Shown: positions 5,696 through 41,321, counted from the stretch's first letter. The stretch: 47,324 nucleotides of DNA from Candidatus Nealsonbacteria bacterium (GCA_011050465.1 DRFQ01000001.1:180860-228183), one strand, 5' to 3'. Notes: generated by a model not told the origin, from the letters alone. A program made the numbers and translations.

Positions 5696-5907
5696 GGTTT
5701 TTAAATCAAAAATAAAAAGGCTGAGAACACGCATTCAATTGGCCTAAACCGCTCTATCTATTATCCCGATCTTGGAGAAAAGTTACAGCACCCCTTCGAT
5801 TCATCGCCAGATTAATCGATCGTTATTCTCGCAAGGTGGGATTGGTTGGTCAACGAGCAGTTTGTGTCGTCCACTTGTTTGCTTGGTTCCCCAACCTAAT
5901 TCATTTC

Positions 5908-5936
5908 AATATAGCTTAAATTTGGATTTGTGTCAA
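5908..5936 (-). promoter_or_regulatory. Sigma-70-like promoter (TTGACA-17-TATATT) on the minus strand
   Basis: Reverse complement reads TTGACA caaatccaaatttaagc TATATT. It would give a leader of about 200 nt before the ATG at 5695. Confidence 0.5.
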
Positions 5937-6305: not shown

Positions 6306-6698
6306 CTAGTACTTTCCTTTCAACCCGAATCCTTGTGTTAAGAAATCTCTTTCTTCTTTGATTCTTCTTTTTTCCTCTCCTGTTTTGGCTCGATGCTCTT
6401 CCATTCTCATCTTTTTAAGTTCACTTATGGCATTACTTCTTGAAATAAAGCCTCTATCTGTACTCCACGGAAATCTTTTATCTAACATTTGATCTATTTC
6501 CCGTTTTTTGTAATATTTGCTTCCGCTACCAGGAATTAAACGTGACTGGCTGAGCTTTTTTTTTGCGTTACCCTTTTGCCAATTTCTCTTTTCGTCAAAA
6601 AAACTTAGGGGACCAGAGGGTTTTTTCTGTTTTTTTACAGTAGGCCTTAAAACAGTAGGCCTCAAAAAAGATGGTTTTGATCCTAAGGTGTTCTTCAT
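6306..6698 (-). CDS. Hypothetical highly basic protein
   Basis: 130-aa ORF, K/R-rich, with no recognisable motif. Bracketed by a terminator and an intergenic region. Confidence 0.5.
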   Translation of the reverse strand: MKNTLGSKPSFLRPTVLRPTVKKQKKPSGPLSFFDEKRNWQKGNAKKKLSQSRLIPGSGSKYYKKREIDQMLDKRFPWSTDRGFISRSNAISELKKMRMEEHRAKTGEEKRRIKEERDFLTQGFGLKGKY

Positions 6699-6987
6699 GA
6701 TTTTGAATTACAACCAGTAAATTTTACCGATTGGCTTTAATTCTTTTTTGGGGTCATTTCTGAAATCAATCCTATGATCATTTGGTTATCCTATATTTAT
6801 TTTAACACAAAAACCGCTTTCTTGGCAATTTTTTAATACTAAGGCCGCTTGGTGAACCAGATTAGAACCTTTTGGGTGAATAAAAAGGCGACTCGAGAAG
6901 AATGAGAGCTACCTGCGACCTATATCTGTACGAGATGTTTTGGCTTCGCTTAGACTATAGAGAGACAGAACTACTTGACCAGTCGGC

Positions 6988-7015
6988 TTGACTTATTTTG
7001 AATAACGAGTATAAT
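6988..7015 (+). promoter_or_regulatory. Sigma-70-like promoter TTGACT-16-TATAAT
   Basis: TTGACT (6988-6993) and TATAAT (7010-7015). Confidence 0.55.
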
Positions 7016-7021
7016 GATACT

Positions 7022-7200
7022 AGACTTATAAGTCGAGTTATCTTAAAGTAAGTCTTTGATAGTTTCAAAGAATTAACGAGGGCTCAAATAAGTAGAGCGA
7101 CTTAAGAGTTATCCTTTGAGGCTTTGACTGAGATCAGCCGAAGTCCAGGCTCAGGATAATCCCGAGCAATATCGAAGGGTTATAAAGGTCGCTTTTTCTT
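7022..7200 (+). promoter_or_regulatory. Structured leader or small RNA upstream of the zinc-ribbon ORF (unclassified)
   Basis: A domain of about 90 nt is closed by AGCGACTT / AAGGTCGCT and followed by TTTTTCTTTT. It holds nested helices (TTATCCT/AGGATAA, AGACTTA/TAAGTCT). Confidence 0.35.
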
Positions 7201-7222
7201 TTAATATAATTTAATTCAATTC

Positions 7223-7405
7223 ATGGCTTTCAAAAAATTTGAATCCAATAGAGGAGATTTTCCCAGAAAAATGTATCAAGGGGATTGGAAATGTTCTGAA
7301 TGCGGCACCGCAATAACTGAGCTTCCATTTGAACCATCTGGAGATAGACCACTCTATTGTAGAGAGTGTCACGCTAAACGAAGAAACCAAAGCTTCGGAC
7401 GCTAA
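7223..7405 (+). CDS. Small CxxC...CxxC zinc-ribbon protein
   Basis: 60 aa with WKCSECG...LYCRECH and a basic C-terminus. Followed by a strong terminator. Confidence 0.65.
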   Translation: MAFKKFESNRGDFPRKMYQGDWKCSECGTAITELPFEPSGDRPLYCRECHAKRRNQSFGR

Positions 7406-7537: not shown

Positions 7538-7906
7538 TTATTTCCTGCATTTTTGACAGGTCTTAGCTCCGGGATAAGCTTTTAGTCTTTCTAGGTCAAT
7601 AATTTTTTTGCATTTTTCGCATTTACCATAATTGCCTTTTTTTATTTTCTTTAAAGCTGAATTGACCGTCTGAAGCTTTAACTCAAGGCTGGCTTCTATT
7701 GGCAATAAAGTGACATATTCTTCAACTTCATCAGCCGCTTCTTCTAGTCTTTGGCCACCTGTTCCTCCGTTAAAATGCGGATATCGAGTGTTCCAGTTTT
7801 CGGCAGTTTTTTCATCTTTTTTGGCAAACGAAGACAGTTCTTTTTCAAGGTTTTCTTTATCTTTTTCTAATCGTTCTTTAAACTCTTGAATATTTTTTTT
7901 ATCCAT
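7538..7906 (-). CDS. DksA/TraR-family C4 zinc-finger protein
   Basis: Coiled-coil N-terminus and C-terminal CEKCKK...CQKCRK. Confidence 0.75.
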   Translation of the reverse strand: MDKKNIQEFKERLEKDKENLEKELSSFAKKDEKTAENWNTRYPHFNGGTGGQRLEEAADEVEEYVTLLPIEASLELKLQTVNSALKKIKKGNYGKCEKCKKIIDLERLKAYPGAKTCQKCRK

Positions 7907-10457
7907 TGTTACTAGTCAATGATTCCATTATTTCTTCTATTATATAAGTCATACTTTCAAAAGACGAAGTCCAAATTAAGAATTGGTCAGTAACCAAGTA
8001 ACAAATTCCTAAGTCATCTTTGGTAAAAGTTTGACAACGCGAAGCTATTCCCTTGTATTTTAAGTCAACAAAATAATCTCGACTGGCAGGTTCAGTTTTT
8101 CCCAATAACCTGAAAAGTTCTTCAAAGTTTTCCTCCATATCCGCCTCCCATAATCTTAATAAATTTTCCATTGCCTCTTTTTCTGTAATGTCAATTAGAA
8201 AACCAAATCTTTTGCCTTCTTTTTGAGTCCAGATGAAAAAGATTTCATTATTCGCTGTTTTTGAATAAAAGCCATCTAAAGGTTGAATTTGAAAGGCAGA
8301 AAAAAGATCAGCAAGATTCATTAATTGGCCGTTTTTCATATCTCTAAAGACAAGCCGGGTAAACTCCCCGTTTGTCAATTTCAACGTCAAAACCTTTTCT
8401 ATAAAAGAGGAAATTTCGTTAACCTCGAAAATTTCAAAAGTTTTTGTTTCACCGATAGAAAAAGGAGAAGGAGGAATGGTAATTTCTTCGCTGGCCGGAG
8501 TTTCTTCAGGAGGAACGATTTCTTCGGGGGGAGTGATCTTTTCGGGAGGAGGCGGCTTTCTTGTCAAAAGCCAGTAACCAAAGAAAAGGCTACCAACTAA
8601 GATTACCGAAAATGTAATTAAAACCAAGAATCGGATGAAGATTTTCTCATAAGAAGAAGGTCTTTTGGGAAGAGGCTTTAAGATTACAGAGGGTTCTCTT
8701 GCCGTTTTTATAGGTTCTTTTCCAATAGGCTCAGCCATTTTTTCTTTTCCAGCATCAATTCTTTCTAGAAATTCTCTTCTCTGCTTTTCGTCTGTTCTTC
8801 TCATTTCATCGGTTCTAATTTTTTTTCTAATTTTTCCACTTTCTTCTTTCTTAGGGATGGGTACAAATTTTTCTTCTTTTTCTTCTTTCGCCTCTTTTTC
8901 CTTTTTGAAAGATATTATTATTTTTTTGATTGGTTCTATTATCGATTTCTTTTCTTTTCTTTCCGGTTGAACAAGGGGTGGTATAAGTTTTTCTTCCGCC
9001 AGTTCTATTGCCGGTCTTCTCTCTTTTCCCGTTTCTTTCTTAGGGATGGGTACAAATTTTTCTTCTTTTTCTAGTCCCGTAGATTTAGTTCCATTTCTTA
9101 TTTTCTCTAATCTTTCTTGAGCTTTTTTGATAAGTTCTTCATCAGCTAATTCTTCTTTGGGTGATCCATTTTTTCTTTCTTTTGCCTTTTCTTTCGAGGT
9201 TTCTTCTTGTTCTGGAGGCTTTTCTTCTTTTCCTGAAACCATTTTTCGCCCCTCTTCTATTAAAATATTTTCAATTTCTTTTATTCTTTCTTTGATACGT
9301 TCTCCTTTATTTTTAATTCTTTGGTGCTTCAAGCTAGCTTCTTTTATCTGAAGGTCTATCTTGCTCTTTTTTTCTTCTATGTTCCACCTTTCTTTTTCTA
9401 TTTCTGTTCTTTCTTTTTCTGCCCCCCATCTTCCTTTCTCGATTTCCTTTCGTTCTTCTACCGAAGGAGACTTAGCTTCTCTTTCTTCAACAATTCTTAT
9501 TTCTTCTTCAATAGATTTTTCATCTCGGGCAATGTTGGCTAACTTCTCTTCCATTTTTTTTCTCCTTTCCGAAAGTCCGTCCAATTCTTCTTCTAAGGGT
9601 GTTTTTTCTTTCTGGATTCCCGCTAGTTCTTCTTCTAATTTAGTTTTCTCTTCCTCCAGAGCCATTTCTTTTTCTCTTTGAATAATCTCTTCCTGTCTTT
9701 TCTGCAGTTTTTTTTCTTCTAAAAAAATTATCTTTATTTCATTTTCTGTTGCTTTTATTTCCGTGTTTGTTTTCTCAATTGCTTCTTCTTCTGCCCATTT
9801 TCTTTCCTCAATTTTCTGCCTTTCCTGTTCAACCTGCCATCTTGTTTGTTCAGCTTCTCTCCTTTTCTCGGGCGTGGCTGCCTTCCTTTCTTTTATCTCT
9901 ATTTCTTTTTTTCTTCCTTCAATTTTCCTCTCCTGTTCCAAAATAGGCTGAAGACCTGATTTCAATTGTTCAATTTTCTCTAAAAAGTCCTTTTTTTCAT
10001 TTTGAAGAGGCCCTTTCTTTAGGGGGAGTTCTTGAAGCGAAACTTCAATTTGAGTTTTTTCCTTTTCTAAATTCTGTCTTTCTTTTTCTCGGGATAATAT
10101 TTTTTCTTTAATTGCTTTTTTCCTCTCTGTTTCTTCTTTCTCTCTTCTCTCTTTTTCTTCAAGCCATTTTCTTTCAATTTCTTCAACTAACTTTTTTTCT
10201 TCCTCTTCTTCTCTTTCTCGAACTCCTTCCCTTCTTGTTTTTATTTCTTCTTTAGGGCGTTCCTCTTTTTTTACTATTTCTTTCGCCTCTTTTCCCTTTT
10301 CTTTTTTTATCTCTATTCCGGTTTTTAGGACTGATACCCTCTCTCTTTCTTCTTTTGCTTGTTTTTCTTTTAGTCTTAAAAGATCTTTCTCCATGGTCCT
10401 AATATCTTCTCTTCGTAAAAATTCCTTTTTTTCTTTTTTATTTGATTTCTCCGGCAT
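7899..10457 (-). CDS. Large E/K-rich coiled-coil membrane protein (hypothetical)
   Basis: 852 aa. About 600 aa of low-complexity E/K/R repeats (EEKFVPIPKKE occurs twice), one TM helix (FLVLITFSVILVGSLFFGYWLL), a PPEE linker and a globular C-terminal domain. Confidence 0.7.
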   Translation of the reverse strand: MPEKSNKKEKKEFLRREDIRTMEKDLLRLKEKQAKEERERVSVLKTGIEIKKEKGKEAKEIVKKEERPKEEIKTRREGVREREEEEEKKLVEEIERKWLEEKERREKEETERKKAIKEKILSREKERQNLEKEKTQIEVSLQELPLKKGPLQNEKKDFLEKIEQLKSGLQPILEQERKIEGRKKEIEIKERKAATPEKRREAEQTRWQVEQERQKIEERKWAEEEAIEKTNTEIKATENEIKIIFLEEKKLQKRQEEIIQREKEMALEEEKTKLEEELAGIQKEKTPLEEELDGLSERRKKMEEKLANIARDEKSIEEEIRIVEEREAKSPSVEERKEIEKGRWGAEKERTEIEKERWNIEEKKSKIDLQIKEASLKHQRIKNKGERIKERIKEIENILIEEGRKMVSGKEEKPPEQEETSKEKAKERKNGSPKEELADEELIKKAQERLEKIRNGTKSTGLEKEEKFVPIPKKETGKERRPAIELAEEKLIPPLVQPERKEKKSIIEPIKKIIISFKKEKEAKEEKEEKFVPIPKKEESGKIRKKIRTDEMRRTDEKQRREFLERIDAGKEKMAEPIGKEPIKTAREPSVILKPLPKRPSSYEKIFIRFLVLITFSVILVGSLFFGYWLLTRKPPPPEKITPPEEIVPPEETPASEEITIPPSPFSIGETKTFEIFEVNEISSFIEKVLTLKLTNGEFTRLVFRDMKNGQLMNLADLFSAFQIQPLDGFYSKTANNEIFFIWTQKEGKRFGFLIDITEKEAMENLLRLWEADMEENFEELFRLLGKTEPASRDYFVDLKYKGIASRCQTFTKDDLGICYLVTDQFLIWTSSFESMTYIIEEIMESLTSNNG

Positions 10458-12587: not shown

Positions 12588-13094
12588 CTATTTTTTAAAA
12601 AGATATTTATCTGGATTTTTGTCCAAATCAATAAATTCGTCAGCTACTTCTTTTAATTGCCCTGAAGCCGATCTGCCAAAAGCAATGACCTCTACTCTTT
12701 TGCCCTGATTCTTTAAATATTCCACCAAAGCAATAAAATCTCCGTCACCGGAAACTAAAACTATTACATCAACCGAAGGAGATGTTCTAATGGCATCAAT
12801 GACAATTCCGACATCCCAGTCCGCTTTCTTTGCTCCCCCAAAAAATTCTTGCAAATCTCTGATTCTCGTCTCAATACCTAATTTGGTTAAGGCTTCAAAA
12901 AACGGTTTTTCCTCTCCAGTTTTTGTCCTAACAACATAGCCAAAAGCCCTGATTAGTTTTCTTTGGCTAACGGCTGTCTTTAGTATTTCTTGAAAGTTAA
13001 CTCTGGCTCGGTAAAGATTTTTAGCCGAATGATAAAGATTCTGAGCATCAATGAAAATACTTACTCTTTGTTCTTTGTGTTTCATCGCTTTCAT
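12588..13094 (-). CDS. NYN-domain (LabA/DUF88-like) predicted RNase
   Basis: IFIDAQNLYHS..., DVGIVIDA, VLVSGDGDFIALVEYLKNQGKRVEVIAFG. Confidence 0.8.
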   Translation of the reverse strand: MKAMKHKEQRVSIFIDAQNLYHSAKNLYRARVNFQEILKTAVSQRKLIRAFGYVVRTKTGEEKPFFEALTKLGIETRIRDLQEFFGGAKKADWDVGIVIDAIRTSPSVDVIVLVSGDGDFIALVEYLKNQGKRVEVIAFGRSASGQLKEVADEFIDLDKNPDKYLFKK

Positions 13095-16736: not shown

Positions 16737-16764
16737 TTGACAAATTTTTTATTGGTGATATAAT
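16737..16764 (+). promoter_or_regulatory. Near-consensus promoter TTGACA-16-(TGA)TATAAT
   Basis: TTGACA at 16737-16742 and an extended -10 TGATATAAT ending at 16764. Confidence 0.6.
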
Positions 16765-16833: not shown

Positions 16834-17337
16834 GTGTTCTTTAGAAGGCCCAAGAGAAATAGAGTTCTTTTTTTGATAGATTTTGAAAATATCCTGAAGA
16901 ATCTTAAGCAGTTGCCTTCGCCAGAAGATCTTTCTTTTTTGGCGGGATTTGACCGGATTGTCAAAGAAATCGCCAGAGAAATAGGCGAAATTGTTGATGT
17001 CTTTATTTTTTTGCCGCCTCATCTGGCCAGCATCTATGGAGAGGACCTTTACCGGGCAGGCTTTTTCATTATAGTTTGTCCGAAAGTAAGAGACAAAGCA
17101 GGAGAACAAATAGACACAACGGACGAGACCTTGATCAGATTCGGTCAGAGAGCTATTGATGAGCTTAATATAACCCATCTATGCCTGGGGAGCGGAGACA
17201 AAGACTTTGGCCCTTTGGTTCGACGAGCCACCCGAAAAGGACTGAAAATCATTATTGCGACTGCTTCACAGCAATCATTAGCAACAGAACTGATCACGTT
17301 GGCCGACAGGATTTTCTTTTATTCACCCACTGAATAG
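16834..17337 (+). CDS. NYN-domain (LabA/DUF88-like) predicted RNase, second copy in the window
   Basis: GTG start 6 nt after AGGAGG. Motifs LFLIDFENI, DTTDETL, LGSGDKDFGPLVRRATRKGLKIIIA. Confidence 0.75.
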   Translation: MFFRRPKRNRVLFLIDFENILKNLKQLPSPEDLSFLAGFDRIVKEIAREIGEIVDVFIFLPPHLASIYGEDLYRAGFFIIVCPKVRDKAGEQIDTTDETLIRFGQRAIDELNITHLCLGSGDKDFGPLVRRATRKGLKIIIATASQQSLATELITLADRIFFYSPTE

Positions 17338-17364: not shown

Positions 17365-17397
17365 GGCAGCGAGAGCAATCTCGCTGCCCTTTTATTT
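17365..17397 (+). terminator. Intrinsic terminator after the NYN gene
   Basis: GGCAGCGAGA-gcaa-TCTCGCTGCC followed by CTTTTATTT. Confidence 0.8.
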
Positions 17398-17409: not shown

Positions 17410-17437
17410 TTGACAAATTTCCTTATTTTGTTATAAT
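17410..17437 (+). promoter_or_regulatory. Near-consensus promoter TTGACA-16-(TGT)TATAAT for the G+C-rich orphan gene
   Basis: TTGACA at 17410-17415 and an extended -10 TGTTATAAT ending at 17437. Confidence 0.65.
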
Positions 17438-17516
17438 TATAATATTGTTCTTTTGCAATTCGCTGCGGGATTTACCATGTTTGTTTCATTTCTGTAAGGA
17501 AGAAAGGGAAAGTCAG

Positions 17517-18923
17517 ATGGCAAGACAAAAGGGTATTCGTCTCCATGAGCTAGACCCAGATCAGTTCGGCCCGGAAGAAGATCTCCCGGACAACTCCCGG
17601 CACGGTTCCAACGATGACTCCGTAGTCGAGGAGGAGGCGGGGTTGGTTCCCTCTCCTAAGCTGCCGGACGTCAGCAGCACCTTGCTCGCTGACGAGACGG
17701 TGGCCGACAAAGTCCGGGAGGGGGCCGAGAAGGTTAGAACCTGGGTAAAGGCCACTTTGGCCGCGTTGAGCCAGGTCGCCCGGGGTTCGCGGGAACTCCA
17801 GGAGATCAGAGCGCCAGCGGTGGCTGAGGCTGAGAGGAAGCTTAATCGTTTCCTCAAAGAGGAAGAAATGCCGGCTTACAGGCGGGCAGCCTGGCTCGGT
17901 CTCTTCGATTTTGAGTTCTCTCAAGAGCTCAAAAACCGGGAAGAGGTGAAGGGTCTTCTCTCTCGTTTGGTCGCAGAGGGTCGTCTCGTTGAGACGACCG
18001 ATGGCCCCATCAAGGGCTATAAGGATAAGGCCGATGAGCCAGAGCCGGCCTACGCCTTTTCCGACGAGGCCCAGTTCGGAGATCCAGAAATGTGGGAGGT
18101 TTCGAGCCTCTACCGGCAATGCCGGCAGAGGGCTTGGGAGGCCACAGGGAAGGCCCGGACCGACGAGGCCCGAGAGCTTATGAAGCAGAGCGAGCTCTCG
18201 GTGGAGGAGTTTCTCGAAGGCAAGCCCGGCATCTTCACGATCGGCATCCCGCCAGAGCCGATCGTGAACCTTACGACAGACAGTATTATAGCCTGGCGAG
18301 GTGGCGGCACTCTCCAGGTCAAGAGCGACGGCCAGAAGATTTTTCCTTTGGCCGCCACCGGTAATATCCAGGCGTCTGTTCAGGAGGCCAAGGAACTCAA
18401 GGTTCATCTCTTCAGGGATTTCCTGAGTTGGGAGACCCCTCCTTTCATCAAGGAGCTTCCCATAGAGATGGCCAAGAAGATTCAGCTTCTCTGGCACCTT
18501 TTGCAGCGCGGACTCCGTGCCGCGGAGGAGACACGGCAGCTTCAGGCCGTTAAGGATGAGATGGCCATCCTGGTAACCGTCACTCCCTCAGAGTTTTTCC
18601 TGGAGGACAAACCAGGCATCTGTCTGGCGGAGTACCGAGGGATCTGGGAGGAGCTGGTTCCAGACGAGGAGAAGGTTAACCGGCGTCCCAATCTGTTCTT
18701 CTCTGTAGAGAGGTTCAGTCAGGAGGGAGAAGAAGGTGACCAGATGTTCATTCGTCTGGTTCAGGTTCCTGATCACCTCGGAGACTTTTTTGAGGCTTGT
18801 TCTGGCGAGTATCCCGAGGGCGAGCAGTTCGGGGGTTGTCCGCAGCCTTTGCGGGCAGTTCTCCGGGCCATCTACGGGCAGACCATGAAGGCTGCCCAGC
18901 TCAACGGCAAAACCAACGGCTAG
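17517..18923 (+). CDS. G+C-rich orphan protein (468 aa) of unknown function, compositionally foreign
   Basis: ATG preceded by GGAAGAAAGGGAAAG. 468 uninterrupted codons at about 62% G+C (hand counts). Codon choice is GAG/AAG/CTC/GCC, unlike the neighbours. Has its own promoter and terminator. Confidence 0.8.
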   Translation: MARQKGIRLHELDPDQFGPEEDLPDNSRHGSNDDSVVEEEAGLVPSPKLPDVSSTLLADETVADKVREGAEKVRTWVKATLAALSQVARGSRELQEIRAPAVAEAERKLNRFLKEEEMPAYRRAAWLGLFDFEFSQELKNREEVKGLLSRLVAEGRLVETTDGPIKGYKDKADEPEPAYAFSDEAQFGDPEMWEVSSLYRQCRQRAWEATGKARTDEARELMKQSELSVEEFLEGKPGIFTIGIPPEPIVNLTTDSIIAWRGGGTLQVKSDGQKIFPLAATGNIQASVQEAKELKVHLFRDFLSWETPPFIKELPIEMAKKIQLLWHLLQRGLRAAEETRQLQAVKDEMAILVTVTPSEFFLEDKPGICLAEYRGIWEELVPDEEKVNRRPNLFFSVERFSQEGEEGDQMFIRLVQVPDHLGDFFEACSGEYPEGEQFGGCPQPLRAVLRAIYGQTMKAAQLNGKTNG

Positions 18924-18955
18924 TAGCTAACCATTGCAGACCCGCAGCGAAAAAG

Positions 18956-18996
18956 GCCCTGGCGTGGCACTCATCCATGCCAGGGCTCTTTATTTT
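18956..18996 (+). terminator. Intrinsic terminator after the orphan gene
   Basis: GCCCTGGC-(15 nt)-GCCAGGGC followed by TCTTTATTTT. Confidence 0.7.
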
Positions 18997-19082
18997 CCCC
19001 CACACCATAACGAGTTTCCATCAAGCCTTTAAAAGCTTGATGGCGAGCGGATTCGTTTCACGAATTTGCATATCCTCGTTTG
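18997..19082. mobile_element. MITE-like element with 18-bp terminal inverted repeats (copy 1, 86 bp)
   Basis: CCCCCACACCATAACGAG ... CTCGTTTGGTGTGGGGG. The same termini bound a 145-bp element at 22783-22927. Confidence 0.6.
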
Positions 19083-19168
19083 GTGTGGGGGTTTTCCTTG
19101 TCCCGGACCAGAAACTTCGTTTCGGTACGGGACTGTGCCCCGCAGCATGTTTTATTCTGATGCGGGGC

Positions 19169-19203: not shown

Positions 19204-21123
19204 ATGAGAAATCACGGTGCAATTCAAAAGAACGCTATGAGAAAACTATTTCAAAATTTTCTTTGGATTATTCTTATTTTTGTGTTTATCTCAGCAGTTT
19301 TTACTTTATTTGTCCAACCCTTTGAAAAAAAAGAAGAAGTTTCTTTAAGCCAGTTGATCGAAGACATTAATCAGGAAAAGATTAAAAAAATTACAGTTAT
19401 TGGCAATAATGTTTCGATTTTATACAAAGATGGCGACTTAAAAGCTGAAACCAAAAAGGAGATAGAATCAGATTTATCCGGTACTTTAATCAACTTAGGA
19501 GTGAATCAGGAAAAGTTAGCTAAAGTTGAGATAGAGATAAAAGAGGATAGGGGAATTTTGTTCTGGCTGGGGCCTATCTCAATATTCTTATTCCCTCTTT
19601 TGTTATTTTTATTCTTTTTCTGGTTTATTTTCCGCCAGGCCAAAACAGGAGCAATGCAGGCTTTTGATTTCACCAAGGCTAAGGCCAGATTATTTGGAGC
19701 TGAAGGCCAGTCCAAAGAAAAAGTCACCTTCAAAGACGTGGCTGGCCTTCAGGAAGCCAAAGAAGAGCTGATAGAAATTGTTGATTTTTTAAAGCATCCC
19801 CAAAAATTTTTAAAGATGGGAGCAAAAATCCCCAGAGGGGTTTTGTTAATGGGGCCGCCGGGATCAGGAAAAACTTTACTTGCCAGGGCAGTGGCTTCTG
19901 AAGCCGGTGTTCCTTTCTTTTCGATCGCAGGATCAGAATTAGTTGAGCTTTTTGTCGGAGTGGGAGCAGCCAGAACAAGAGATCTTTTTGCTATGGCGAA
20001 AAAACGCCAGCCGAGTATTATTTTTATAGATGAATTAGATGCCATTGGCCGAGTTAGAGGGTCAGGAATCGGCGGAGGGCATGATGAAAGAGAACAGACT
20101 TTAAATCAAATTTTAGTAGAAATGGATGGATTCGAGAGAGAAAGTACGGTTTTAATCTTTGCAGCAACCAATCGCCCTGACGTCCTCGACCCTGCTCTCT
20201 TAAGGCCGGGCCGTTTTGATCGCAGAATAATTTTAGACCTACCGGACATTAATGACAGAGAAGAAATTTTAAAAATTCATTGTCGGGGGAAACCATTGGT
20301 TCCAGGCGTCAATTTAAGAGAAATTGCAGAACGCACTCCTGGCTTTTCAGGAGCCGACCTGGCTAATTTAGTTAATGAAGCTACTATTTTAGCTGCCAGG
20401 AGAGACAAGAACCAGGTCTATCAGCAAGAATTTTTAGAATCAATTGAAAAAGTGCTTTTAGGACCAGAAAGGAAAAGCCACGTTTTATCTAAAAAAGAAA
20501 AAAAAATCGCTGCTTATCACGAGATTGGCCATGCCTTAGTGTCAATTTCTCTGTCAGGGACAGATCCTATCAGAAAAATTTCAATTATAGCCAGAGGGAT
20601 AGCTGCAGGCTACATTTTAAAAATGCCAAAAGAAGAAAGGAGGATGAAGACTAAATCTGAATTTTTGGCCGATTTAGCATCTTTACTTGGAGGTTATTGC
20701 GCAGAGCAAGTAAAATTTAAAGAAATTACTACCGGCGCCAGCAATGACTTGGAAATGGCCTCTATGTTGGCCAGGAAATTAGTTAAAGAGTATGGGATGT
20801 CATCTTTTGGCCCTATTTCTTTCGGAGAAAAAGAGGAATTAATATTTTTGGGGAGAGAATTGGGCGAGCAGAGAAATTATTCTGAGGAAGTAGCGGCTAA
20901 GATTGATAAAGAAGTGGCAAAATTCCTTGAAGACGCTCAAAAAACAGCCAAAAAAATCCTGACCAGAAAGAGAAAATTATTAGATAGGCTCGCCGAGGCT
21001 TTGATTGAGAAGGAAACTATCGAAAAAGAAGAATTCGAACAATTAATCAAAGAAGGAGAAAAAAGAAGTAAAAAAGAGAAGAAGATTACAATTCCTCGTT
21101 TAAAAATAAAAGAAGTGAAATAG
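19204..21123 (+). CDS. ftsH: ATP-dependent zinc metalloprotease FtsH
   Basis: Two TM helices, Walker [12 protein letters not shown], and the HEIGH zinc motif. Start is 19204 or 19237; the longer track ORF crosses the MITE and the promoter. Confidence 0.92.
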
Positions 21124-21133
21124 ATAAAATTAA

Positions 21134-21208
21134 GCGCGTGTAGCTCAACTGGTTAGAGCTCCGAGCTTATACCTCGGCGGTTTCCAGGTTCGAGTCCTGG
21201 CACGCGCA
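21134..21208 (+). tRNA. tRNA-Ile (anticodon TAT)
   Basis: GCGCGTG/CACGCGC acceptor, anticodon stem CCGAG/CTCGG, loop CTTATAC. The variable region is 6 nt. Confidence 0.8.
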
Positions 21209-22782: not shown

Positions 22783-22927
22783 CCCCCACACCATAACGAG
22801 CTTTGTGCTTCGCACAGTGAATTATAGTATTGGGGATGAATTCAACAGAATAAATTAAACAACAGCGAGTAAAACTTTTAGGATGATGTTATTTTATCTT
22901 AAAATATAAGCTCGTTTGGTGTGGGGG
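22783..22927. mobile_element. MITE-like element with 18-bp terminal inverted repeats (copy 2, 145 bp)
   Basis: CCCCCACACCATAACGAG ... CTCGTTTGGTGTGGGGG. The internal sequence is unrelated to copy 1. Confidence 0.6.
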
Positions 22928-29201: not shown

Positions 29202-29341
29202 TTAAGGTTTTTTAACTTTTGAATTTAATCCCGTCCTTCGCGAAACGGGGGCGGGGAAGCCTGTGGACTTGGGGGGAACTCGAACCCCCGATTCCGCACC
29301 AGAACAAGTTCGGTACGAGGCAACCTCTTCTTAAATTTCTA

Positions 29342-29412
29342 TGGACCCACGGGGAATTGAACCCCGGACTCGTCCATGCCATGGACGCGTGTTACCCCTA
29401 TACCATGGGCCC
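29342..29412 (-). tRNA. tRNA-Ala (anticodon GGC)
   Basis: GGGCCCA/TGGGTCC acceptor with G3:U70, loop ATGGCAT, T-loop TTCAATT. Confidence 0.82.
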
Positions 29413-29544
29413 ATGTGTCCCCGAAAGGAGTCCGAACTTAGGCCTTGCGCTAGAGCCAAGCTCAGTGCGGGGTAAAAGCCTCTTGCCTGCCGTGCACCAT
29501 ATCTTTATGTCTTCCCGGGAGGAGTTCTCACCCCGTCCTTTTTA

Positions 29545-29617
29545 TGCCCTCGGGAGGAATCGAACCTCCATTAGCGGCTTAGGAGTCCGCGGTTCTAATC
29601 CGTTGAACTACGAGGGC
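29545..29617 (-). tRNA. tRNA-Arg (anticodon CCT)
   Basis: GCCCTCG/CGAGGGC acceptor, loop CTCCTAA, T-loop TTCGATT. Confidence 0.88.
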
Positions 29618-29873
29618 AAAAGTGGCGGGGCGGGCTCCCCAACCTTCTCCTTAGGACGAAGCCGTTCTATTTGCCCCGCACCGAACTTGTTCTGGTGCGG
29701 GATCCAATTGAGCTGCGAGGAGATATTGGTGCGGATTGTTCTACTTGCCCCGCACTTAAATGCAAAGCATTTATAGTGTCGGGGTCCGTTGAACCATGGG
29801 GGGCAAATTCAAAATTATAATATCAAATTTCTTTCTTGTTGACAAGCTTTCTCTCTGTTATAATTGATGTGTA

Positions 29874-40094: not shown

Positions 40095-41321
40095 TTATTG
40101 TATTGCTCCCAACATGCTGTACATAGGTTGAATCATTGAGATGGCAAAAAAACCAACTGCTCCACCAACTAGAAGCATTAATAATGGTTCCATTATTGCC
40201 GAAAGGTTTTTGGTATGATTCGTTACTTCTTCTTCATAAAAATCAGCCAACTTGGCTAAGATTTCTGACGTCTGGCCTGTTTCTTCCCCGATCTCAATCA
40301 TCTGAATAACCATCGGAGGATAAAGATCTTGATAGGGCGTTAAAGCCAAAGAAAGTTTTTCTCCTTTCTGAATCTTTTCTATCGCACTGATCATTGCTTC
40401 TTTAAAATAAATATTCCCTAAAGATCCAGAAACAATCCTTAAGGCTCTAACAAGAGGAATACCAGAGACAATAAGAGAACTTAGGGTTCTCAAAGTTTGA
40501 GCTGAATTGGTCTTTTTAATGATCGGAGAAATAATAGGAATTTTTAAGGTTATACTATCCAAAATCTTTTTTCCTCTCTTTGTTTTCAAAGCGTTTTTAA
40601 GAAGAAAAAATAAAACAAAAACTATAATTAAGAATAAATACCATTTTGTAGCTAAAAATTCTCCAAGACCAATTACAAAACGAGTAGTAAGAGGAAGATC
40701 AATCTCTAGCTCTCTAAAAGTTTCTGCTAGTTTAGGTATAACCATAATAAGCATCAAGACTCCAATACCTACCATGGCAAAAATAATTACGGCAGGATAA
40801 ACCATTGCCCCTATTATCTTTGATCTTAAGTCGTGCTCTTTTTCCATTTGGTAAGCCAAATTTTTTAGAACATTTTCCAGAGTGCCGGATTCCTCTCCAG
40901 CTTTAATCATACTGACAAAAAGCTCAGAGAAAATTTCAGGATATTTTTTTAAGCTTTCAGACAAGCTTTTTCCCTTATTTACTGCTTCTAAAATTTCAGC
41001 AAGAGCTTTTTTGAATTTTGGATTTTTACTTTGAGTTGATAAAATTGACAAACTTCGAGGAAGAGAAACGCCGGCCGAAACCATTACCCGAAGATTTCTG
41101 GTAAACATCATTTTTTCGGTCAGAGAAACCTTCCCAAAAAAAGACAGAGATATTTCAAATTTATTTTTTTTATCCTTAATTTCAAGTTCGGCTTCGGCTC
41201 TAATCAAAACATATCCTTCTTGGTGAAGGATTTTTGACAGCTCTTTTTTGGTTCCAGCTTCTAGAGTTCCTGTCTCGATCTCTCCTTTAAAAGATTTTGC
41301 GGTATAAAAATATTGAGGCAA
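40095..41321 (-). CDS. pilC: Type IV pilus platform protein PilC (GspF family)
   Basis: Two GspF repeats, three TM segments, 408 aa. Confidence 0.9.
   Translation of the reverse strand: MPQYFYTAKSFKGEIETGTLEAGTKKELSKILHQEGYVLIRAEAELEIKDKKNKFEISLSFFGKVSLTEKMMFTRNLRVMVSAGVSLPRSLSILSTQSKNPKFKKALAEILEAVNKGKSLSESLKKYPEIFSELFVSMIKAGEESGTLENVLKNLAYQMEKEHDLRSKIIGAMVYPAVIIFAMVGIGVLMLIMVIPKLAETFRELEIDLPLTTRFVIGLGEFLATKWYLFLIIVFVLFFLLKNALKTKRGKKILDSITLKIPIISPIIKKTNSAQTLRTLSSLIVSGIPLVRALRIVSGSLGNIYFKEAMISAIEKIQKGEKLSLALTPYQDLYPPMVIQMIEIGEETGQTSEILAKLADFYEEEVTNHTKNLSAIMEPLLMLLVGGAVGFFAISMIQPMYSMLGAIQ

Follow-up and report, generated by a model that had tools for sequence, protein, structure and literature searches.

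Mutation in bacteria is biased toward A+T, and what holds their G+C content above the resulting level is an open question in the field, for which selection and biased gene conversion are the candidates, and the effects studied so far are genome-wide and so tiny that they are hard to measure. Here we analyse a 47,324-nt stretch of DNA from Candidatus Nealsonbacteria bacterium (GCA_011050465.1 DRFQ01000001.1:180860-228183, hereafter the window) and one gene in it, labelled X (17517-18923, + strand), whose G+C content lies about 20 points above that of its genome. In X a force of this kind appears to be concentrated on a single 1.4-kb gene; it is very large and sharply bounded, and is replicated over dozens of independently evolving lineages with the neighbouring genes as controls. 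Other loci and genomes that were compared with the window carry L-numbered names (L001, L003, L008 and so on).

The nearest familiar phenomenon is the codon bias of highly expressed genes. Like the bias of X, it is gene-specific, stands at equilibrium and goes together with a strong promoter and a lower-G+C 5' end, and the population-scaled bias of ~1.6 needed to hold X at a third-position G+C content (GC3) of 0.69, against a background equilibrium of 0.31, is of the size usual for it. However, X runs against its genome, the gene for ribosomal protein L19 does not share its preference, the shift reaches first codon positions and amino acids, conserved residues show no enrichment, and the protein evolves fast. 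Raghavan, Kelkar and Ochman reportedly demonstrated by experiment, in 2012, a selective force toward higher G+C in bacterial genes. Selection of this type, or GC-biased gene conversion (gBGC) in bacteria, resembles the force on X in that it favours G+C, opposes A+T-biased mutation and acts regardless of codon optimality, but it is genome-wide and small, whereas that on X is limited to a single unit, shifts GC3 by +0.3 to +0.4 and is deeply conserved.

Two further systems share part of their biology with X. The vlsE expression site of Borrelia is a G+C-rich antigenic-variation locus in an A+T-rich genome, and its composition is thought to be linked to gene conversion. X is likewise a G+C-rich, fast-evolving gene in an A+T-rich genome, but tblastn and blastn searches of the 47-kb window found no silent cassettes or partial copies of it, it has no signal peptide, lipobox or excess of G-runs, and it sits in a chromosomal housekeeping block. 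NYN ribonucleases (RNases) occur with LOTUS/OST-HTH partner domains, as in MARF1. X is similar in its conserved pairing with an NYN gene (PF01936), in being a repeat protein and in its sub-threshold matches to winged-helix-like proteins; it differs in having no Pfam OST-HTH match at E <= 1 and no Foldseek match to a solved structure, and its modelled repeat module has a five-stranded sheet and not a classical winged helix.

The large G+C-rich (lgr) genes of Protochlamydia amoebophila have 41-43% G+C in a genome of 34.7%; they are multi-copy, show genome-like codon usage and were read as foreign in origin (PMC2216083). They share with X a lineage-specific distribution, the lack of an assigned function and a G+C content above that of an A+T-rich genome. 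In contrast to them, X is single-copy and syntenic, stands ~20 points above its genome, has flipped codons and bears no sign of foreign origin. Gene-specific compositional bias is therefore already known, and X is new in running opposite to its genome and to L19. Its novelty lies further in the size of the shift (~20 points), its uniformity over site classes, its deep conservation and its occurrence in a fast-evolving protein that has no known relatives. Our search of the literature found no description of the X family or of its G+C phenomenon.

Composition, boundaries and coding status of X

A preliminary description of this stretch, drawn up from the sequence, had singled out a G+C-rich ORF (open reading frame) in A+T-rich surroundings, and we confirmed this. 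The G+C content of X is 0.581 (GC1/2/3 = 0.65/0.40/0.69) against 0.374 for the window minus X, and the GC3 of the remaining window ORFs is 0.31 +/- 0.07. The elements of the X transcription unit are:

17410..17437, + strand: promoter of X, TTGACA-16-TGTTATAAT, a 12/12 match to the sigma-70 consensus with an extended -10 TG
17496..17512, + strand: Shine-Dalgarno region of X, purine-rich AAGGAAGAAAGGGAAAG, read from the sequence and conserved in L003; the 5' untranslated region (UTR) is ~70 nt long
17517..18923, + strand: coding sequence (CDS) of X, 468 codons, G+C 0.58, GC3 0.69, ending in the double stop TAG-TAG
18955-18987 (listed extent 18955..18996), + strand: intrinsic terminator of X, a 13-bp stem with nine G-C pairs followed by a T-run

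The ATG at 17517 was chosen as the start of X because the orthologue alignment agrees with it and because a longer, GTG-started frame of 528 aa would enclose the promoter and terminator. In a 200-nt profile, G+C jumps from 0.36-0.41 to 0.58-0.65 right at this codon. Sharp edges had been described at both ends of the gene; the one at the start codon stands, but the 3' edge is softer, with a G+C of 0.45-0.53 for ~250 nt after the stop, which we attribute to the terminator and to a separate structured element of ~170 nt (18997-19166). In all eight loci checked, the 5' UTR is A+T-rich (0.26-0.38 G+C in the 100 nt before the start) and G+C drops within 100-300 nt of the stop. Along the gene, GC3 is 0.45 over the first ten codons and then climbs to 0.6-0.7, and just 3' of the promoter the non-template strand shows a positive G+C skew. 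A second apparent G+C-rich ORF in the window, at 29219-29776, was rejected as a spurious frame over two tRNA genes.

X is a genuine protein-coding gene, as had been proposed. Substitutions between its orthologues are most frequent at third and least frequent at second codon positions (pos3 > pos1 > pos2), the ratio of nonsynonymous to synonymous rates (dN/dS) is ~0.3, and the reading frame is intact in all sampled members; apparent in-frame stops in L012 and L015 turned out to be alignment overhangs, and neither is a pseudogene.

Very stable predicted folding, and an antisense frame that runs for 345 codons without a stop and encodes 315 aa counted from its first start codon, would be in keeping with an artefact or a non-protein feature, that is, a chimera, an antisense gene or a structured non-coding RNA with an incidental open frame. 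We consider the chance of this close to negligible, in view of the substitution order and dN/dS just given and of the following results. The antisense frame is not conserved: it is open for 91-199 codons in seven orthologues and falls to 162 codons in one that is 81% identical, and it is therefore a shadow of the G+C-rich frame, as the preliminary description had supposed of the antisense ORFs. RNAalifold, run on a protein-guided codon alignment of 21 orthologues, returned a consensus energy of ~0 in all windows, below the score of an FtsH control, which excludes a conserved structured RNA in the CDS, and Rfam gave no match to X at the gathering score or at E <= 1. An independent 9-kb contig, assembled from a different sample, matches the window at 99.91% identity over 6,746 nt and runs across both composition edges; a chimeric join, against which the preliminary description had warned, is therefore excluded.

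The flip in codon choice that had been noted in X was verified for nearly every amino acid. G-ending codons make up 0.81 of the Glu and Lys codons, against 0.22 elsewhere, and the strongest flips are those at Lys, Glu and Gln (0.81-0.88 against 0.22-0.42). In a tally by site class, G-ending Lys/Glu/Gln codons stand at 0.67 against 0.22; two-fold amino acids served by one tRNA each (Phe, Tyr, Asn, His, Asp) use C-ending codons at 0.65 against 0.26, and four-fold sites mostly show C going up and A going down. Synonymous first positions are shifted as well (CTN among Leu codons 0.87 against 0.31, CGN among Arg codons 0.68 against 0.29), TTA, TCA and AGA are almost gone, and even the choice of amino acid has moved, with R/(R+K) at 0.52 against 0.38. 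In low-contrast lineages the shift is weaker and its direction unchanged. Since the shift is generic across site classes, isoacceptor-specific codon selection was rejected. Translational-accuracy selection was likewise excluded, because an Akashi test found no enrichment at conserved residues (Mantel-Haenszel odds ratio 1.15; GC3 0.58 at conserved against 0.55 at variable sites). The GC3 of a lineage-specific disordered insert (0.71) is that of the folded core (0.70), and no recurrent k-mer motif, G-run excess or G-quadruplex potential was found in X. The ribosomal protein gene L19 lacks the preferred codons of X (mean GC3 0.29 against 0.56). The force acting on X takes no account of codon position or protein constraint, does not reach beyond the transcription unit and is conserved family-wide.

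X forms a transcription unit of its own, with a maximal-consensus promoter and an intrinsic terminator. Where a near-consensus promoter and a clean terminator had been described, both are present, and the promoter is in fact a 12/12 match. The 47-kb window contains two such promoters only, those of X and of the NYN gene upstream of it, against a chance expectation of 0.08, and in other loci the promoter of X is usually the sole 12/12 site. Across 20 non-redundant lineages a 12/12 promoter precedes X in 16, mostly with the TG, and the remaining four match at 10-11 of the 12 positions. As judged from its consensus, the promoter of X is probably the strongest of its neighbourhood. Both promoter and terminator are identical in L003 and L008, and about half of the other loci have a terminator-like hairpin after X. 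Even where the X proteins of two genomes share just 62-81% identity, the DNA of promoter and terminator hardly differs.

Inheritance of X and persistence of its composition

X had been described as an orphan, which was not borne out. A word-indexed search yielded 14 relatives, all of them metagenomic or from Patescibacteria, and an exhaustive profile search yielded 393 representative clusters of the X family, 179 of them at E < 1e-30. By these sequences the family, of at least 393 clusters, appears to be restricted to Patescibacteria. The window itself resembles a chromosome segment of Patescibacteria (the candidate phyla radiation, CPR): it carries 19 tRNA genes and encodes PNPase, the CCA-adding enzyme, YraN, two NYN proteins, FtsH, RluD and L19. 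The family is undescribed and widespread in this group, and its probably very strong promoter and its pairing with an NYN RNase gene make its product a good candidate for a major lineage-specific cellular component.

Synteny was assessed in 31 loci, some of them from shared lineages, which represent about two dozen distinct lineages; the scan of metagenome loci used a 26-sequence alignment of X. The order NYN-X-FtsH was found in essentially every locus with flanks, usually as (GyrA-MBL-S1)-NYN-X-FtsH-RluD-L19, and NYN lies directly upstream of X in nearly all loci that have a left flank. This arrangement extends to members only ~25% identical to X and to one member of 638 aa. X is therefore a vertically inherited gene, specific to the Patescibacteria lineage, in a conserved housekeeping block.

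The contrast in composition recurs with the gene. In 23 of 23 metagenome loci the G+C of X exceeds that of its flanks, by +0.04 to +0.23. Mean GC3 over 25 loci is 0.56 for X, 0.36 for NYN, 0.31 for FtsH, 0.26 for RluD and 0.29 for L19 (range for L19 0.20-0.40), and among ~119 ORFs in ~190 kb X is the sole consistent GC3 outlier. Two distant members have a GC3 of 0.61 against 0.20-0.33 and of 0.76 against 0.38-0.44 around them, so the offset of X rides atop the level of each genome. The preliminary description had allowed that the gene and its composition might be the norm of the lineage at this locus, with no GC3 contrast. The gene is indeed the norm, but the contrast is retained and not absent, and this makes the case stranger rather than more ordinary.

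Between lineages, all genes have reached saturation at synonymous sites, with a proportion of synonymous differences (pS) of 0.62-0.85. Since the high GC3 of X has been kept through this saturation, it is not the leftover of a transfer. We also polarised the substitutions in the closest trio of genomes and counted changes from weak to strong (W>S) and from strong to weak (S>W) base pairs. The ratio of W>S to S>W was 61:80 overall and 28:40 at third positions, where decay toward host composition predicts 1:5; the departure at third positions is significant (p = 1.8e-6). The near balance of the two directions, together with the GC3 kept despite saturation, excludes the amelioration of a foreign gene. 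The composition of X is an actively maintained equilibrium in every locus examined.

A recent horizontal acquisition from a G+C-rich donor would fit the atypical composition and codon usage of X and its sharp bounds, and the preliminary description had spoken of a foreign composition. We give this origin a very slight chance. X occupies one syntenic slot in all lineages down to ~25% identity, the G+C contrast is present in all loci, synonymous saturation has come about with no loss of GC3, and there is no excess of S>W changes and no decay toward host composition. No high-G+C host locus occurs among the 31 loci, searches of phage, plasmid and viral (IMG/VR) contigs found no relatives of X, and the flanks consist of housekeeping genes, with no mobility genes. 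The term foreign is hence not appropriate, and there is a practical lesson in this, in that composition alone would mislabel the core gene X as horizontally transferred.

Forces that could maintain the composition

The rates of evolution in the block bear on the nature of the force. In the close trio, dS was 0.33/0.85/0.93 for X and 0.34/0.57/0.65 for NYN, about three times the values for FtsH and YraN (0.09-0.27), as estimated by the Nei-Gojobori method (NG86), which is composition-sensitive, in this one trio of related genomes. The dN of X was ~14 times that of FtsH in the same genomes. In comparisons of more distant pairs the highest dN values of the block are those of X and NYN, and dS is saturated for all genes; distances of X and FtsH correlate at a Spearman coefficient of 0.28, those of X being saturated.

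We tentatively favour the explanation, to which we would give a little short of an even chance, that X is very heavily transcribed and that selection on its transcript keeps up its G+C. X would be one of the most heavily transcribed genes of the cell, and its G+C-rich, A-poor, self-pairing mRNA would, in a cell otherwise rich in A+T, live longer, be a poorer target for A/U-directed RNases and for Rho, and yield more product per molecule. The A+T-rich 5' UTR and the lower GC3 of the first ~10 codons would keep the ribosome-binding site open.

Predicted folding bears on this explanation. The minimum free energy (MFE) of X mRNA is -634 kcal/mol for 1.4 kb, against about -320 to -370 for neighbours of equal length. 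In eight of eight orthologues the mRNA is 9-12% more stable than its synonymous-codon shuffles (z = -4.3 to -8.0), with the limits that the orthologues are not independent and that the shuffle erases local heterogeneity and codon-boundary dinucleotides. For 16 control genes the median z is -1.0 (Mann-Whitney p = 6e-5 against X). The strongest control, the gene at 40095-41321 (- strand), has an mRNA 14% more stable than its shuffles (z = -4.5). We regard the folding excess of X as supportive and not decisive.

Several observations, besides these limits of the folding test, weigh against selection on the transcript. Promoter consensus is the only sign of the heavy transcription of X. No G+C shift is seen in the presumably well-expressed L19 and FtsH genes, so high expression alone is insufficient. 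Two of the 16 folding controls reach a z of about -4.2 to -4.5, and no position-specific conserved RNA structure was found in X, so any selected structure would be generic. Constant synonymous selection should lower dS, yet the dS of X is ~3 times that of FtsH and YraN, and the raised value is more in line with a mutational or recombinational process. Proteins expressed at high levels, moreover, usually evolve slowly, and X is the fastest-evolving of its block.

Such a process could be provided by a recombination hot spot with gBGC, in which X, and less so NYN, diversifies fast and passes repeatedly from one related cell to another via its conserved flanks, while biased repair of the heteroduplex raises G+C at every position. 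This would account for the ~3-fold dS of X and NYN relative to YraN and FtsH in the trio, alongside near-identical promoter and terminator DNA, for the highest dN of the block in X, for a shift that ignores codon position and protein constraint, and for the weaker, gradient-like shift of NYN; gBGC is also documented in bacteria (PMC4450053). Conversion tracts should, however, spill into the flanks, and the edge at the start codon is sharp and the 5' UTR A+T-rich. The raised dS, besides, comes from a single trio and a composition-sensitive estimate. A GC3 offset of +0.3 to +0.4 is also far beyond the few-percent effects that are reported for gBGC in bacteria, and we consider this process unlikely, though it is the main rival of selection on the transcript.

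Translation offers another route, in which X is written in codons of isoacceptors little used elsewhere and is thereby decoupled from bulk tRNA demand or modification, for example in starvation or stress. Such insulation has analogues in the bldA/TTA control and in 'modification-tunable transcripts'. It would explain why Lys, Glu and Gln show the largest flips (0.81-0.88 against 0.22-0.42), the window does encode C34/G34 isoacceptors (Lys-CUU, Pro-CGG, Ala-CGC, Ser-CGA, Arg-CCU and Leu-GAG), and a bias of ~1.6 is of a size typical of codon selection. We nevertheless hold it to be distinctly unlikely, since pyrimidine-ending two-fold codons that share one tRNA are shifted equally (0.65 against 0.26), first positions and amino acids are shifted too (R/(R+K) 0.52 against 0.38), and conserved sites show no enrichment. 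A role at the level of DNA, with coding secondary, would require that the 1.4-kb G+C-rich duplex beyond the maximal promoter acts in its own right; we considered a barrier to strand opening or supercoiling, R-loops and the exclusion of A+T-binding nucleoid proteins. A force blind to codon position and protein constraint, the positive non-template G+C skew just past the promoter and a weakly constrained protein (dN/dS ~0.3) are consistent with it, but the invariant motifs, the confident predicted fold and the intact ORF in all sampled members indicate selection as a protein, no G-run excess or recurring motif was found, and the composition edge lies at the start codon and not at the transcription start, all of which makes this role highly improbable.

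Behind the favoured reading, selection on the transcript, stands a broader proposition, namely that a single vertically inherited gene is held ~20 G+C points above its genome, throughout a deep bacterial lineage, by a nucleotide-level force which is confined to its unit and is distinct from protein constraint and from known translational selection. We entertain this as a possibility, with some doubt. If it is true, the mRNA or DNA of X has a selected physical property of its own; it could be, for example, a message of exceptional stability, kept in store or protected from nucleases, and linked in function to the NYN RNase next to it in these ultra-small symbionts. The X protein would then also have, according to its model, a previously unseen fold.

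The X protein, its neighbours and other elements

The product of X is an acidic, soluble, fast-evolving protein of ~50 kDa (468 aa, 52.7 kDa, isoelectric point 4.9), with no transmembrane or hydrophobic segment and no signal peptide or lipobox. An AlphaFold2 model built from 14 sequences reached a mean confidence (predicted local distance difference test, pLDDT) of 82.9, and a model of the C-terminal half one of 87. The model and the alignment divide the protein as follows:

17517..17642, + strand: acidic, predicted disordered N-terminus (residues 1-42), pLDDT below 50, GC3 0.71
17691..18059, + strand: N-terminal helical domain (residues 59-181), with an invariant AYRRAAW motif followed by a small beta hairpin
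18072..18431, + strand: repeat module 1 (residues 186-305), with a long helix, EFLxGKxG, a five-stranded sheet and an invariant WRGGGxL hairpin
18450..18851, + strand: repeat module 2 (residues 312-445), with a long helix (KKxQLLWHLL), EFFLExxPG, a five-stranded sheet and a conserved Cys428

An acidic, probably disordered N-terminus had been predicted, and the low pLDDT of residues 1-42 agrees with it; part of this region is a lineage-specific insert, seen as an alignment gap in most members. Each module is modelled as a helix of ~33 residues, the (E)EFLxGKxG motif and a five-stranded sheet. The internal duplication suggested at first sight is supported by HHalign, which aligns module 2 with module 1 at a probability of 90% (E = 1.7e-6), and the translation of the distant 638-aa member, L038, seems on visual inspection to contain the motif and module a third time.

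The statement that X has no recognisable motif and is undescribed also held in Pfam, NCBIfam, PHROGs, PADLOC, PDB and BFVD. Scans of X against the first four of these gave no family match; in family scans of 65 members no family was found in more than one member, the single-member matches being marginal, and eight longer members gave none. Sequence-profile searches of the PDB with 14- and 65-sequence profiles reached best E values of 0.013 and 0.15, which are not significant. Neither were those of Foldseek, at 0.18 (full model) and 0.6 (C-terminal half) against the PDB and 0.02 (full model) against BFVD, with TM-scores normalised to the query never above 0.16. Sub-threshold matches recur on winged-helix proteins (the Fic C-terminal domain, YceH and DEP), which we regard as a lead and not as a result. 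In the databases all relatives of X are named "hypothetical protein", and a second word-indexed profile search brought no relative with a name. Because of the conserved pairing with an NYN RNase and the RNA-metabolism neighbourhood, our guess is that X is tied to nucleic acid or to an RNase as an associated factor.

The neighbouring genes contribute these elements:

16737..16764, + strand: promoter of the NYN gene, TTGACA-16-TATAAT with TG, 12/12, the only other perfect one of the window
16834..17337, + strand: NYN gene upstream of X, PF01936 (Pfam E = 7e-11), GC3 0.42
17365..17388, + strand: intrinsic terminator of the NYN gene, a 10-bp stem with seven G-C pairs and a T-run, conserved in L003 and L008
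19169-19206: promoter of ftsH, TTGAAA-17-TATACT with TG, ending 6 nt before the ATG at 19204

The predicted NYN terminator would split NYN and X into two transcription units. NYN orthologues have a GC3 of 0.36-0.51, above that of their neighbours, as a milder version of the shift in X, the perfect 12/12 promoter of NYN is found in the window and in L001, and the NYN protein is the second-fastest evolving of the block, with raised dS. A second NYN gene (12588-13094) has no perfect promoter, G+C shift or fast evolution. The sequence of the ftsH promoter, TATACTCGAGTTATG, is identical in L003 and L008, and because it ends 6 nt ahead of the ATG the ftsH mRNA may be leaderless. The FtsH match of L033 is split by ~1.2 kb (6399-7364 and 8595-9470), which suggests an insertion (intein, intron or mobile element) or a disruption of the gene.

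An inverted-repeat element with identical arms of 17-18 nt (CCCCCACACCATAACGAG ... CTCGTT(A)TGGTGTGGGGG) around unrelated inserts of ~60-110 nt occurs at the following places:

18997-19166 and 22783-22927 in the window
2904-3075 in L003
~5780-5914, 8046-8188 and 13518-13535 in L038

The copy past the terminator of X, taken with two adjoining hairpins 3' of its arms (to 19166), folds at -89.9 kcal/mol (z = -9.5), and the copy past tRNA-Leu at -53.9 kcal/mol (z = -6.9). The element has no Rfam match and is a clean indel relative to L008. Its exact arm recurs in a genome whose X is ~25% identical and was found in none of the other ~20 lineages sampled; since the repeats accompany X in two lineages only, they were rejected as systematic flanks of the gene. 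The element looks like a MITE-like (miniature inverted-repeat transposable element-like) mobile element or a stem-bracketed small-RNA family.

An 852-aa ORF at 7899-10457 (- strand), in a region whose strands are extremely asymmetric (AT skew ~-0.57, GC skew ~-0.38), has no Pfam match and probably encodes a low-complexity or repetitive protein. Directly 3' of ftsH, at 21134-21208, ARAGORN identified a tRNA-Ile with anticodon UAU. The tilS gene adjoins ftsH in many bacteria, and a tRNA-Ile of this kind, as read from its anticodon, would make TilS dispensable for the reading of AUA in this lineage. Many of the 19 tRNA genes in the 47 kb have C34/G34 anticodons for G/C-ending codons that are rare in the genome, and tRNA-Pro(CGG) and tRNA-Ala(CGC) lie 1.4 kb upstream of X.

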